From Haplodiscus bocki (lineage: Eukaryota), in contig OZ296654.1 in assembly GCA_965655095.1 (NCBI GenBank), positions 47,182,001 through 47,246,000 on the forward strand: a DNA stretch of 64,000 nucleotides. Reading direction: 5' to 3'. Under the pieces are notes generated by a model. The model was not told the DNA's origin, ran no database searches, and was given only the letters and a program-made list of their open reading frames with translations. A program made the position numbers and the translations under genes. Of the stretch, positions 8,615 to 23,394 are shown in pieces (within the stretch, counting starts at the first letter, position 1; each line of letters starts with the position of its first letter).

Positions 8615-9173
8615 TTATTGTTTGAAGTGAATAATTTTACAATTTATAAAATCATTACCATATTCAACATCACCTTCGTTTTCTTCTGTAATATTATCAC
8701 CTTTTAATTCTTCCTCTTTTTTTATACAAATACTAATAATCGTTTTTCACTGTTGAGTTTTCATATTCTTGAAGAGGAATATATTTTTGATGTGACATGA
8801 AGTAAATGTTTTCTTTACCCTAAGCAAATGGAAACTTAACATCGTTAAAACCATGTTCTGAAAAATATTCTACAATTTCATCATATGTTTCAAAACTAAA
8901 TAATTTTTCTCCTACATGAACCAATTTTTTATTTTCAATTTCGAACAGAAAATTTCCATCTTTATTGTTTTCATCCGGTCCAAATACATGCAGATAATTA
9001 AAGCTCAGAAGTAATTCTATTTCATGATGTGGATTATCTCTATAAGGTGTTTTATAAATCTGAGCTTTTTTTAAATCAGCGAAAATTAAAACTATATATG
9101 TATTAAATCTATTATGTGTTAACACACAGGTTTCGGGGTTATTTAATCCTGGTGTTTCGATTTTATCATTCAT
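8615..9173 (-). pseudogene. hypothetical protein resembling a conserved giant-virus (NCLDV) hypothetical family; disrupted
   Basis: DGNFLFEI..KKLVHVGEKLFSFET.DEIVEYFSEHGFNDVKFPFA*GKENIYFM continues past the stop at 8820; family resemblance is from recall. Confidence 0.55.
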
Positions 9174-9192
9174 TTATAATACACAAAAAGTA

Positions 9193-9698
9193 TTATCTAA
9201 AATATTTATTCCACAACTCTTCATACTCTCTCCAATCTTTATCTTTGTTATACCAATACCACATTATACATTTTTCTGTGAAATCGGATTGAATCGGTAT
9301 ACAATAATTGTTTATATAGTCATCGTTGGTAACAATGTTCTTATAAAATGCTACTTCTAAAGATGAAAATGGTAATCCCAATTTTCAACGATAGCATATA
9401 TTTAAATTATCAATAGTACCATAATATCGGAAAGTTATCTTATTTATTTTTATTACTGTACACCCTTTTTTTTTCGCATTCTACACAGAAACAAGAGCAT
9501 CCCTGTTGATGTATATTTAAATATTTTATTCTTTGTTTTATTATCTTTCTCATCTAGGATTTTTACATTATATATCGTCTGACAAGAACTATATGATTGA
9601 ATATATCTATCGGAACAATCTGAACTTGCTTCAACAATTATTTCGTCAACAACTTTAATGTTTATATTATAAAAAACATATTCTTTCATGAACTCCAT
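9193..9698 (-). pseudogene. hypothetical viral protein, frameshifted
   Basis: Two adjacent minus ORFs (9453-9698, 9193-9381) separated near a poly-T run at ~9466-9474; TAAATG start. Confidence 0.5.
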
Positions 9699-10104
9699 TT
9701 AAATATTGTTATTCCGATAACAGCCAAATCTTCTATTAATAGTATCTCATTTATTATAACTAAAAATAAACATATAAAATGAACATTAAAACAAATTCAC
9801 TTGAATAATATGTCAACTTTGTTGATACCACAAAGAAACAAAATAAAAACTTATGGATAGGTACAATTATACTTGTATTTATACTGATTATACTTACAAT
9901 TATAACATTTAGATATATTCAATTATACTTGTAGTTATACTTGGGTGTACTTACAAGTATATGAAAAATTATACAATCATAGAAATGAAGTGATAGTACA
10001 ATTACAAGACTATTTATACTTAGTATGTATTCTAAAATTTTCATAATTTTAATTGTAATAATTGTATTTTTGTTTCTGTTTTTTGTCCTATTATACAATA
10101 TTAA

Positions 10105-10539
10105 ATGAATAATACCCATTCTTTAAGTGAAACAAACAAAACTGCTAATATGGATCCCAATCTGTTAACTAGGCATTATAAATTAAAAAATATGATTGAT
10201 TTCATGCATGTAAAATATCAAAATCCGAAAATGAAACAATTTGAGATAGCAAATCATTTAAACATGTCCTCTTCTACTCTACAAAGATATAGAAACGATA
10301 TAAATATGCATTCACCATACAGAACTAGCCCAAATAACGTCAAAAAAAGGTCGAAAAAGGCTGAAATCGATGATATCGGTGACCTCAAAAGACCTCAAAT
10401 GACCTCAAATGATCTCAAGACAACCTCAAACGAACCAGTTAAATTTAAGAAAAACAAATTGAAAGGTGGATCTATACAAGACAATATTGAAATTAAAGAA
10501 CACTATTTAGAAAAAATTCTTAAAATTAATAACTCTTAA
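10105..10539 (+). CDS. helix-turn-helix DNA-binding protein
   Basis: MKQFEIANHLNMSSSTLQRY fits an HTH; internal 10-bp repeats (gacctcaaat) at 10381-10435; LKGG near the C-terminus. Confidence 0.7.
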   Translation: MNNTHSLSETNKTANMDPNLLTRHYKLKNMIDFMHVKYQNPKMKQFEIANHLNMSSSTLQRYRNDINMHSPYRTSPNNVKKRSKKAEIDDIGDLKRPQMTSNDLKTTSNEPVKFKKNKLKGGSIQDNIEIKEHYLEKILKINNS

Positions 10540-19934: not shown

Positions 19935-20510
19935 TTAATTCTCTTCTCTCAGGAAATCATTTCTATCCCAACCGCAAACGGAATAATCAAGTCCTTCATC
20001 GTTATAATCATGATCATAAAGGTTATCAGGTACTGAACCTTGTTCGTTACTAATAATATTAATCCAAATTTTTGTTCTATTCTCGAGGGTATCAATTGGA
20101 TCATCTTTACCTGGATCTTGAAAAGTGTAATTTTTGTGATAAAAATCTTGTTTAAATTGAGCTATCATATCATGTCTATAACCATATCCCCATTGCTCTT
20201 CCTCATCTGGGTCATCAAACCACAGACGTATTGGAACATGATTTGTTATATTAGTACACATTCTAAAATATAATTTTAAAAAATCAAACAGTGCTAAATC
20301 ATTATCATTGCTGGTAAAAATCACTTCCCAAAAATATTTCTCAAGTTTCATACCTTCACCTCTAGTCAGTTTTCTTTGTGGAAAAAATGCTGGCCATTAT
20401 CCATTGACTTCTCTATGTAAATGTCTACTAGAATAGAGATGTTTATTCCATTGTTCTTTTGTGTAGAATCTATCACAAATTTGACAAAATATGTCGTTAC
20501 AGATTACCAT
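19935..20510 (-). pseudogene. C2H2-type zinc-finger protein, one internal stop
   Basis: MVICNDIFCQICDRFYTKEQWNKHLYSSRH in frame upstream of ORF 19935-20351. Confidence 0.6.
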
Positions 20511-20528
20511 TTACAAATTCTTATAAAT

Positions 20529-20819
20529 CTATTCAATTTTTTCTTCCAATGCTTTTAATTTATTTTGTAATTCAGCATATGATCTAACTAAGTCTTTAAA
20601 TTCTGTGTTTCTTTTATTTCTGTAATCATTCTGTTTCTCTAATAGTTTATCTCCATTTTTTTCATAATATATTTTTTGTTGGTTTGATATTTTATCTTTA
20701 TTATTCTAGTATCGTTTTACACCTCTTTTGATATTGCAAGCTTTACATTCTGAATATTTTTTGTAAAAGTTGTTGATCTGTTTTTCAATTTTACACACAG
20801 TGCAAGTTTTATTCTCCAC
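20529..20819 (-). pseudogene. small CxxC...CxxC zinc-binding coiled-coil protein, disrupted
   Basis: ENKTCTVCKIEKQINNFYKKYSECKAC followed by a charged coiled coil; internal stop. Confidence 0.55.
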
Positions 20820-20878
20820 TTATTTATTATGTTTTTATTGAATAGATATTTTTAATTCAATAAATTTATTCCTTATAA

Positions 20879-23394
20879 ATGAACAGTGTAACGATCACAA
20901 CTCGATTAGCTGAAAAAAAGAAAACAAAATTAGAAAAAAGAAAGCAAAATGAATCAAATAAGGAAAGAAAACGAAATGTAAAGAAGACAAAAAAGAGAAA
21001 ATATAGCAGAAGAAAATATTGACGTAGGTAGATTTTTCGAATTAGCAACAAGCAGTAAAATATATGTTAACAATTTAAACTTGCATGAAATTAAAGATGA
21101 AATTTTACAAGATTACACAGGCGATTTTGAGTTAAATGGATTAATGATCATTGGACCTGTTGAACATAAAACAAATATCAGATTTAAAAATATGGATGAT
21201 TTTGAAAGATATATAAACGCAATAGATATTGATTACGATTCTGAAGATGTTACTTTTACAGGTTATGTTTATAAAATAAATACACCTCATTTCAGTGTTG
21301 TCAGACGAAGCGCTTACGGTAGAGGTACTAATTATATGCAAGAAATTGTGGAATATCATGGACAAAACTGTTATATACCAACTTCGGGAATGTGTTTTAT
21401 CAAATGTAATAATTATTTTACTAAAAAACATTATACACAAGAATTTTTAACTTTCATCCGATCCGAACAAAGAAGATCTAACGTGATGACGTCAGCTAGA
21501 ATTCAACCATTCTGTAAAAAATATAATATCAACATCGGATGTTTTGATGGAACGAGAATAAATCCTCGAAACCTCACTCAAAAAGACACATCATTTTTCA
21601 TATATAATAACCAATTCTGTTTAATTTGGAAAACAGATGGCATTAGTTTTGATAAAGCAATAAAAGAATTGAAAGACAACTTCAAAGTTGTTGATAATGT
21701 TATATCTGATAAACATGTTAAGAGTTTTATTAAATATGAATACAACCCTAAGAAAGTTAAATCTCCATTAACCAACATAGTAGTGTATGATTTAGAGACT
21801 TTCAATAAAAATAGAGCTGTTCCATATTGTAGTTGTATATATAAACTGAGTAAAATTTCAGGTAAATAACATCGAGATATATCAGAACAAGAATAACAAA
21901 AATGTATGAATGATTGTGTTGTTTTTAAGGGAACTGATTGTATTAGTGAAATGTTAGATCATGTTTTATCATTCAAAGGAGAACCAAAAAAAATCAAAAA
22001 TAAAATTGTTGAATATAATCTATATCTGATAGCTCACAACGGATCTGGTTTTGATAGTTACGTTGTATTAAATAATTTACCCCAATGGCGAAGTGTTGTC
22101 AAACTAGTTAAAAATGGAGCTGGTAGTATTTCACTTAAAATATTCAACGGTTATGTGGATGAAAAAAAAAATTCCTCAATATGTTCATTTTAGATGTGGA
22201 AGAGTTCATATTAATAGGAGTTTGAAAAAAATAGGAGAAAGTTAAAAATTACAAGAAAGTTTACTTAAAAAAGAATTAGAACATGATGAAATTTATGAGG
22301 ATACTTGGAAAGAGAGAGAAGACGAGTGGTTACCTTATGTTAAAAATGACGTATTATCAACTGCTTTCTGTTATGCTAGATACACGATGGGAATGGAAGA
22401 ATTAACAAATTTTGGTATGAAAAACAGTTTAACGTTACCATCGTTAGCTAATAAATATTTTAATAGTTTGAGAGATTAAAACGATGAACCAATTTATACA
22501 TATACAGATCCTTTTATGAGAAACTTTGTACGTAAAGCAATTAAAGGAGGTAGATGTAATGCTTTTAACCAACATTATAAATCTGAAATTTCAGATGAGG
22601 GATTCAATATTTTTTCAAAGGAATTAAACGTTAATGGTGACGAATGTGAGATTTTGGAGAAGTATTTTGAATTTTTAAAAGAACACGAGAAACAATATGC
22701 AAAAGAATTCGATTCAGAATATGACGATTTTAGAGATATTAATGAAGAAGAAAAAACTGATTTTATTAACAAAAAACTTAACACGTTACCAATTCATAAA
22801 GAGTTGTCTAAATTAGATTCAAATAGAACTCAAAAGGGTTATGACGGTAATAGTCTATATCCTTCTGCTATGTGGGATGAAAATAGTGTTTATCCTAAAA
22901 TAGAAACTGGATTTGTTTTTAAACCAAATATGAATGATGTTTATGTAGAAGCATTCAACAATCAAACATTTAACGAAGATAGTGACGAATCTGCTATATT
23001 AACAATAAAATATTACAATCCTCTTGATCTTATATTCCAACATTTACCAGTTAAAGAAAAAGTAAAGAAGATAGAAGTTACCAGAATGAGAAATGGATAT
23101 ATCAATGACACATTAACCTCAATTGACATTCAAGAAATTGTTAAATTAGGTGGAAAAGTTGCTCGAATCTACGAAGGTGTTATTTATCGTGAGAACTTTA
23201 AAATATCACCGTTTAGAAAAGTTATAGAAAAATTATTTGCTTTAAGACAAAAATGTAAAGACGAAAAGACTGATTTAATGCAAGGGTTAGTTAAATTAAT
23301 TATGAACAGCTTATACGGAGTTCAAATACGCAGAGATATTAACGAATCATATTATTGTAAGTCAGAAAATTGGATGAAAACTGAATTTAAGTAA
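20879..23394 (+). pseudogene. polB: protein-primed family B DNA polymerase, multiply disrupted and 3'-truncated
   Basis: ExoI VYDLETF, ExoII AHNGSGFD, ExoIII YVKND, motif A YDGNSLYPSAM, motif B KLIMNSLYG; motif C (DTDS) absent. Confidence 0.93.

Follow-up and report, generated by a model that had tools for sequence, protein, structure and literature searches.

Which RNA polymerase reads a Polinton whose genes nearly all begin within the same hexamer, TAAATG? The question arises in a stretch of 64,000 nt from the genome of Haplodiscus bocki (contig OZ296654.1; hereafter the window), where an AT-rich copy of such an element occupies positions ~8142-23390 at a GC content of 26-29%. A preliminary description of the window had drawn attention to the hexamer and proposed transcription by a polymerase like that of poxviruses or other nucleocytoplasmic large DNA viruses (NCLDVs), rather than by host polymerase II. 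The TAAATG observation is real and stronger than first stated. Moreover, controls from the same genome, a T ten bases upstream of the motif, an A-rich core with a 12-base spacer and an RPO18 homologue in a sister lineage all support the proposed type of polymerase. The elements are probably integrating, virophage-like parasites of a still-unknown poxvirus, transcribed by its RNA polymerase and not by host polymerase II; we infer their dependence on this helper.

Within the window, 16 of the 18 gene starts carry TAAATG, each where it had originally been listed; the two exceptions, TAAAGG at 12139 and, on the minus strand, TAAGTG at 20822, depart from it by a single base each, likewise as first reported. 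Because the homologous genes in other copies begin with TAAATG, these two are point changes in the window copy. The starts that had been chosen by hand in disrupted genes are borne out by intact copies, whose N-termini align there; in particular, the start at 20510 is genuine, with 33 of 37 residues identical to its intact homologue. TAA precedes 36 of the 537 ATGs in the window element (6.7%, gene starts included) and the first ATG of open reading frames (ORFs) in 298 of 4774 cases in shuffled sequence (6.2%); the chance probability of 16 in 18 is P=4e-16 at p=0.08. The signal is positional only, since the raw count of T-N9-TAAATG across the 64 kb is not raised (33 versus 27.4 +/- 4.7).

The same holds in other copies of this lineage, sampled as the window plus 19 fetched from 100 listed copies (high-scoring, with an open capsid frame), where anchoring the starts by homology removed any choice of start. 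Across these 20 copies, 308 probe hits from 15 gene families have an ATG at the homologous place in 275 cases, and 265 of the 275 read TAAATG; most of the 33 hits that lack an ATG come from one penton probe that also matches its paralogue, the others being lost starts, and a few zinc-finger probe hits are ATPase starts that were counted twice. Other ATGs in the same copies lie in TAAATG in 428 of 10,674 cases (4%). Further, the upstream DNA diverges between copies of one gene while the hexamer persists. Inside coding DNA, TAAATG occurs 200 times in sense and 99 times in antisense, versus 236 and 160 expected, with no depletion of TAAAT by itself; since the copies are related and the shuffle is crude, this no more than hints that stray promoters are removed.

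The preliminary description had held that a TAAATG bias shared by host genes would speak against viral transcription; no such bias was found. Host gene starts carry TAAATG in 2 of 45 cases and have A or G at position -3 in 34 of 45, which rejects a host start-codon bias as the source of the motif. The host sample comprised 52 genes (47 Ras-family first exons, four histones and the second subunit of polymerase III), from which seven with no ATG in the exon were dropped; three further Ras loci were excluded as unparsed or far from the start, and the host starts are inferred, some possibly wrongly. An unrelated GC-rich Polinton family (41% GC), sampled as 20 of 93 listed copies, carries TAAATG at 4 of 163 clustered starts, which include a few doubtful ORF clusters, and all four lie in the protease gene. 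A general Polinton trait is thereby rejected in this host. This family has protease, integrase and ATPase matches; the protein that we take to be its capsid has no sequence similarity to the window capsid. Separately, a splice-acceptor-like sequence lies shortly upstream of 11 of the 45 host starts and could reflect 5′ introns or trans-splicing; the gene for the second-largest subunit of host polymerase III is intronless, with an open frame of 1139 codons; the histone genes H2A, H3, H2B and H4 form a long tandem array, with a unit of 4.6 kb, at 15.58-16.31 Mb of one host contig; and Wnt matches occur at three loci of the assembly, as for an animal host.

The conservation extends beyond the hexamer. 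Vaccinia late promoters are described as TAAAT, in most cases running on into the G of the start codon, with a conserved T at the tenth base upstream, and vaccinia intermediate promoters as having no such T and an AT-rich stretch further up (PMC11980589). The intermediate layout consists of an AT-rich core with no strict consensus, a 12-base spacer and TAAA, and is read by the polymerase itself (PMC12917281). Conserved genes of salmon gill poxvirus are likewise marked by TAAATG (PMC4542343). In the window, 17 of 18 starts have a T at exactly the tenth base before TAAAT (P=4e-6), the exception being the zinc-finger gene, which bears a core instead. Across the window lineage, the family-weighted T frequency peaks at -10 with 0.75, compared with 0.36 for TAAATG away from gene starts, and T is in the majority in 11 of 15 families. 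The A-rich core with its 12-base spacer precedes the polymerase (polB), zinc-finger and RPO18-like genes; T at -10 is absent from the latter two and present in polB, where AATAA ends 12 bases upstream in 9 of 9 copies. By their sequence, the gene starts have a promoter layout, of late and apparently also of intermediate type, and not merely a hexamer. The earlier view took all starts as late-type; with the core at the polymerase and zinc-finger genes, there are apparently two promoter classes.

A second AT-rich lineage offers a cleaner test of the T at -10, because the peak in the window lineage was seen before the published position was read. Lineage 2 was found with a distant capsid query (at least 102 matches); its capsid is 26-28% identical to that of the window and its gene order differs. 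In 10 copies, 99 of 135 starts carry TAAATG, and for 31 of the remaining 36 TAAAT lies upstream at a distance of 2-14 bases, against a background of 13.5%, and is out of frame with the ATG in 14; five have none. The T frequency again peaks at -10, with 0.71 and a T majority in 12 of 16 families (P=0.008), and in both lineages the peak stands within a T-rich patch, the flanking positions having 0.65-0.69. As in the window lineage, the core class comprises the polymerase, the zinc-finger gene and some accessory genes. Among metagenome relatives (14 loci), TAAATG is found at 15 of 17 hand-picked, non-redundant starts, and 12 have T at -10; redundant, fragmentary and decayed ORFs were left out of this sample. 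Capsid, RPO18-like and polymerase queries found no relatives among viral contigs. One nucleocytovirus-like accessory family occurs in both AT-rich lineages (L237:4562-5083 and L043:8476-9629), implying a probable gene exchange between them, and an ORF in the polymerase region of lineage 2 (L233:371-2335) weakly matches recombination endonuclease VII (E=1.6e-4, just under the cut-off).

Clustering of the element ORFs revealed that lineage 2 carries a 140-aa accessory gene matching PF03293, the 18-kDa subunit of poxvirus RNA polymerase (E=1e-16); at about 140 aa, it is shorter than the 161 aa of its poxvirus counterpart. Vaccinia Rpo18 is its sole significant sequence match in the PDB (E=2e-11; profile 4e-14), and no Rpb7 is listed up to E=10. 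The predicted structure (mean confidence score, pLDDT, 86) has vaccinia Rpo18 as its best fold match (template modelling (TM) score 0.81, E 9e-11), followed by the African swine fever virus (ASFV) homologue (2e-6) and yeast Rpb7 (3e-6), and in the viral fold library it is topped by salmon gill poxvirus Rpo18. Sequence and modelled fold both place the gene nearer to poxvirus Rpo18 than to the ASFV homologue or cellular Rpb7. It is present in 8 of 10 lineage-2 copies, with at least 150 scored matches among 456 candidates in the genome; compared by eye, the coordinates put at least 18 of these on the same strand as a listed lineage-2 capsid and 4-6 kb upstream of it, and one lies within a full gene array. 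The ratio of nonsynonymous to synonymous substitution (dN/dS) has a median of 0.29 over 66 pairs of 12 sequences, by which measure this transposon-borne homologue is conserved under purifying selection. Together, the vaccinia-like layouts and the RPO18 homologue point to a poxvirus-type polymerase specifically, rather than to that of any NCLDV.

The proposed sequence of events is as follows. In a poxvirus-infected cell, element DNA would first be read at the intermediate-type promoters, yielding the polymerase, the zinc-finger proteins and the RPO18 homologue, and then at the late-type promoters, yielding the capsid, penton-like proteins, ATPase and protease. The early transcription system of vaccinia is virion-bound, and the lack of early promoters would fit an unpackaged DNA that is unable to use it. 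The integrase would then place copies in the host germ line, as mavirus does. Initiation inside TAAAT would lead, by slippage, to a 5′ poly(A) leader that is not templated and replaces an unfavourable T at -3; such slippage at TAAAT is described for vaccinia and yeast elements (PMC6211774). A candidate role for the RPO18 homologue is to bias or jam the helper polymerase; in vaccinia, Rpo18 and Rpo147 form a surface for the capping enzyme (PMC12917281). The fullest version of this account is tentative and on balance doubtful: in it, an undiscovered poxvirus would be parasitised by two or more lineages of endogenous virophages with a two-step intermediate and late programme, one of which would use its RPO18 to reprogramme or poison the polymerase, as a heritable anti-poxvirus defence like that of mavirus in protists.

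Several findings weigh against a poxvirus helper. The motifs are short and AT-rich, copies within one family are not independent, and the Polinton family that serves as negative control has a higher GC content (41% versus ~27%). The RPO18 gene is absent from the window lineage (0 of 20 copies), and its donor is assigned by best match only. The preliminary description had suggested looking for polymerase and late-factor genes of a poxvirus or NCLDV in the assembly, and none was found. In particular, VLTF3 and D13 queries gave no match, in a search with no positive control that did not extend to the capping enzyme, early factor or D5. The search with the RNA polymerase large subunit gave only three intron-split loci, read without translation as host polymerases I-III, and none viral; that with the second subunit matched host polymerases II and III and no viral polymerase, at a limited sensitivity, as it missed polymerase I. 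The absence of a helper from the assembly neither supports nor refutes much, because an exogenous helper would not be in it. Further, the one large-virus-like accessory family of the window lineage weakly resembles those of Mimiviridae and other nucleocytoviruses, not poxviruses: for a model of one member (pLDDT 68), the top 14 fold hits are all uncharacterised nucleocytovirus proteins, with TM scores of only 0.29-0.44. Finally, the account offers no explanation for the access of a cytoplasmic polymerase to integrated copies in the nucleus, or for the origin of so many copies.

These points bear on two rival accounts of transcription. The promoters might have been inherited from a poxvirus and now serve host polymerase II in the nucleus, under the direction of a protein that the element encodes (the helix-turn-helix (HTH) protein, or the RPO18 homologue replacing Rpb7), with no need of a helper. 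Nuclear self-propagation would explain the very high copy number and the young insertions, whose terminal repeats are up to 99.8% identical, more easily, and no helper was found in the assembly. We nevertheless regard this as unlikely, since polymerase II starting inside TAAAT would produce a leader of 0-2 bases with a T at -3, where host starts mostly have a purine; no TBP, TFIIB or late-factor family was found among the 23 + 43 element proteins scanned; and, in the copies examined, the two lineages have the promoter layout in common but not the HTH gene or the RPO18 gene. Alternatively, the helper might exist and be something other than a true poxvirus, namely a nucleocytovirus of another kind, or a linear replicon of the cytoplasm whose polymerase is related to that of poxviruses. 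Yeast elements of the latter kind use TAAAN with slippage (PMC6211774), a TAAAT motif is reported for ranavirus (PMC5294985), and the accessory family fits non-pox nucleocytoviruses by its fold. However, the T at -10 and the 12-base spacer agree with what is reported for vaccinia, the captured subunit is far nearer to poxvirus Rpo18 than to ASFV or mimivirus-type Rpb7, and the sequence upstream of the yeast motif is likened to early promoters, unlike the layout here (PMC6211774), making such a helper quite improbable.

A third account places TAAATG in translation, as an in-frame stop that insulates genes or aids re-initiation on long transcripts, or as a host start preference. The TAA is in frame with the ATG, and at 10540 it is the stop codon of the upstream gene. 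Yet element ORFs end in TAA, TGA and TAG in 225, 70 and 20 cases, whereas the triplet before the homologous ATG is TAA in 265 cases, TAG in one and TGA in none; these counts, and the out-of-frame TAAAT at 14 lineage-2 starts, reject the insulator. Because TAAAT is sometimes out of frame with the ATG in lineage 2, explanations by stop codon or Kozak context are disfavoured. Host and GC-rich Polinton starts do not share TAAATG, and translation gives no reason for a T fixed ten bases upstream. A role in translation is already largely refuted and has very little probability left.

By its genes and termini, the element itself is a Polinton/Maverick: it has a polymerase, an rve integrase, terminal repeats with a 6-bp target duplication, and a capsid module. 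In the window copy, a Pfam scan identifies the capsid (PF21738), the rve integrase and the protein-primed polymerase (PF03175), and no catalytic RNA polymerase family was found among the element proteins scanned. Several other copies have terminal inverted repeats of ~0.9-1.2 kb; in elements of 17.3-17.4 kb, the 6-bp target duplication is exact in one copy and has a 3-base offset in another. A capsid search of the 1.5-Gb assembly gave at least 100 scored matches with 85-100% identity among 24,574 first-look candidates, which do not equal a copy number. The window copy is decayed: many frames are broken, the right end is missing, and only the left terminus is kept, as a terminal inverted repeat remnant at 8142-8613 (no strand; left end approximate) that aligns to the left termini of two other copies and whose positions 8389-8613 match both ends of other copies.

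All gene starts given here are TAAATG unless stated. At the left end, the minus strand carries an accessory gene, shortened here (8820-9173), whose family resembles uncharacterised nucleocytovirus proteins, and an accessory ORF (9453-9698), both with T at -10. The plus strand continues with the helix-turn-helix gene (10105-10539; Pfam HTH_24, E=0.002 here and 8.5e-6 in another copy; TAAATG in 18 of 18 hits), whose stop is the TAA within the TAAATG of a conserved 112-aa gene, broken here (10540-10874). They are followed by a conserved gene of 145-150 aa with no assigned function (11116-11568) and, starting within its 3′ end, a gene with no Pfam match that we take to encode a capsid maturation protease (11543-11956), from its His/Asp/Gln/Cys motif order. 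After a small basic protein (11963-12166) come two paralogues, presumably penton-like as first labelled from motifs and gene order only: gene 1 (12139-13213) has lost its start codon and has a broken frame, and gene 2 (13237-14331) is open. Three genes broken in this copy come next: a conserved basic gene of 132-139 aa (14356-14768; TAAATG in 21 of 21 hits), a conserved 177-aa gene with a hydrophobic stretch (14852-15383) and an A32-like packaging ATPase (15578-16332; Pox_A32, PF04665, E=6.8e-6 in another copy). A conserved 280-aa gene, also broken (16404-17257; 21 of 21 hits), precedes the double jelly-roll (DJR) major capsid protein, an open frame at 17649-18899 (PF21738, E=4.4e-9) with a late-type start (T run, T at -10, TAAATG at 17646-17651). 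Only PF21738 matched the capsid in the family scan, its PDB sequence search gave no match, and its Atlas matches are unnamed or DJR clusters only; the element is not assigned to the virophage taxon (Maveriviricetes/Virophaviricetes). PHROGs gave nothing useful for 10 element proteins, and the Atlas nothing for the accessory family.

The minus strand then carries the retroviral-type integrase, broken here (19054-19906; rve, PF00665, E=1.4e-8, above the cut-off), a broken accessory gene with an N-terminal C2H2-like motif (19935-20510) and the small zinc-finger-like gene, whose start codon is lost (20535-20842); the latter has an intermediate-type promoter with an A-rich core at 20832-20842, a 12-base spacer and no T at -10. 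On the plus strand, the polymerase promoter (20856-20881) consists of an A-rich core at 20856-20864, a 12-base spacer and TAAATG at 20876-20881, with T at -10 too, and polB follows at 20879-23394 (DNA_pol_B_2, PF03175, E=1e-13), with an open 1125-aa frame in another copy. Some window-lineage copies (L036:2597-5139 and L258) have another, distantly related polymerase that faces the opposite way, which suggests that replication modules may be swapped. The intergenic blocks at 9842-10023, 10882-11098, 17265-17623 and 18912-19092 belong to one repeated AT-rich motif family, also found in the terminal repeats of other copies; they are possible binding sites or origins, and likely lie behind the turnover of upstream sequence. 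Elsewhere in the window, a second, heavily decayed Polinton remnant (51150-56800) keeps the gene order of the main copy at ~25-40% identity in short segments, partly inverted and beside a 200-base N gap, and degenerate repeats with a period of ~175 bases flank the region at 5535-7514 and 58282-59390.

These results bear on gene expression in animal Polintons and on the question of whether some of them parasitise larger viruses; we know of no virion or helper shown for them so far. The signature could sort Polinton families into those likely to depend on a poxvirus and those transcribed by the host, and can be scored in any genome. A further prediction is that this host lineage harbours a poxvirus not yet known, and an RPO18 homologue under purifying selection on a transposon is a candidate hijacking or antiviral factor. 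A literature search, whose coverage excluded subscription papers and preprint supplements, found no description linking Polintons with TAAAT(G) or RPO18. The virophage lifestyle itself is known; its probable occurrence in integrated Polintons of an animal, with a poxvirus as the likely helper, appears to be new, and we hold this with reasonable confidence.

Canonical animal Maverick/Polintons (adintoviruses) share the protein-primed polymerase (pPolB), rve integrase, A32 ATPase, capsid genes, terminal inverted repeats and 6-bp target duplication, and the word 'promoter' is absent from the available text of both papers describing them (PMC8502044, 10.64898/2026.06.19.733378). Vaccinia intermediate and late promoters share TAAAT(G) over the start codon, the T at the tenth base (late), and the AT-rich core, 12-base spacer and TAAA (intermediate) (PMC11980589, PMC12917281, PMC5294985); unlike in vaccinia, the layout here belongs to a Polinton with no gene for a catalytic polymerase subunit, and its activity is predicted from sequence. 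The yeast cytoplasmic virus-like elements pGKL1/2 have in common a protein-primed linear DNA, the TAAAN initiator and 5′ poly(A) leaders, but possess their own RNA polymerase and capping enzyme, no capsid and no integration (PMC6211774). Trichomonas polintons are described as having received an egovirus gene (10.1101/2024.03.23.586382). Mavirus and the EMALEs of Cafeteria burkhardae are, as here, integrating elements of 15-20 kb with pPolB and rve integrase whose genes start with the helper's late promoter, and the shared promoters are taken as the basis of activation by the helper; they differ in their protist host, virophage capsid and CroV TCTA motif, whereas the present elements have an animal host, a Polinton-type capsid, poxvirus-type promoters of two apparent temporal classes and a predicted helper (PMC8547959). 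The entomopoxvirus-associated Polinton-like viruses AHEV_PLV1/2 and CBEV_PLV1 (Barth et al. 2024) were proposed as poxvirus hyperparasites that exchange genes with poxviruses; they were inferred by co-sequencing with occlusion bodies and are ~12 kb long, with no rve integrase and no promoter analysis in the available text (PMC11296320). In comparison, the elements described here add a promoter anatomy and an RNA polymerase subunit, in integrated high-copy form.

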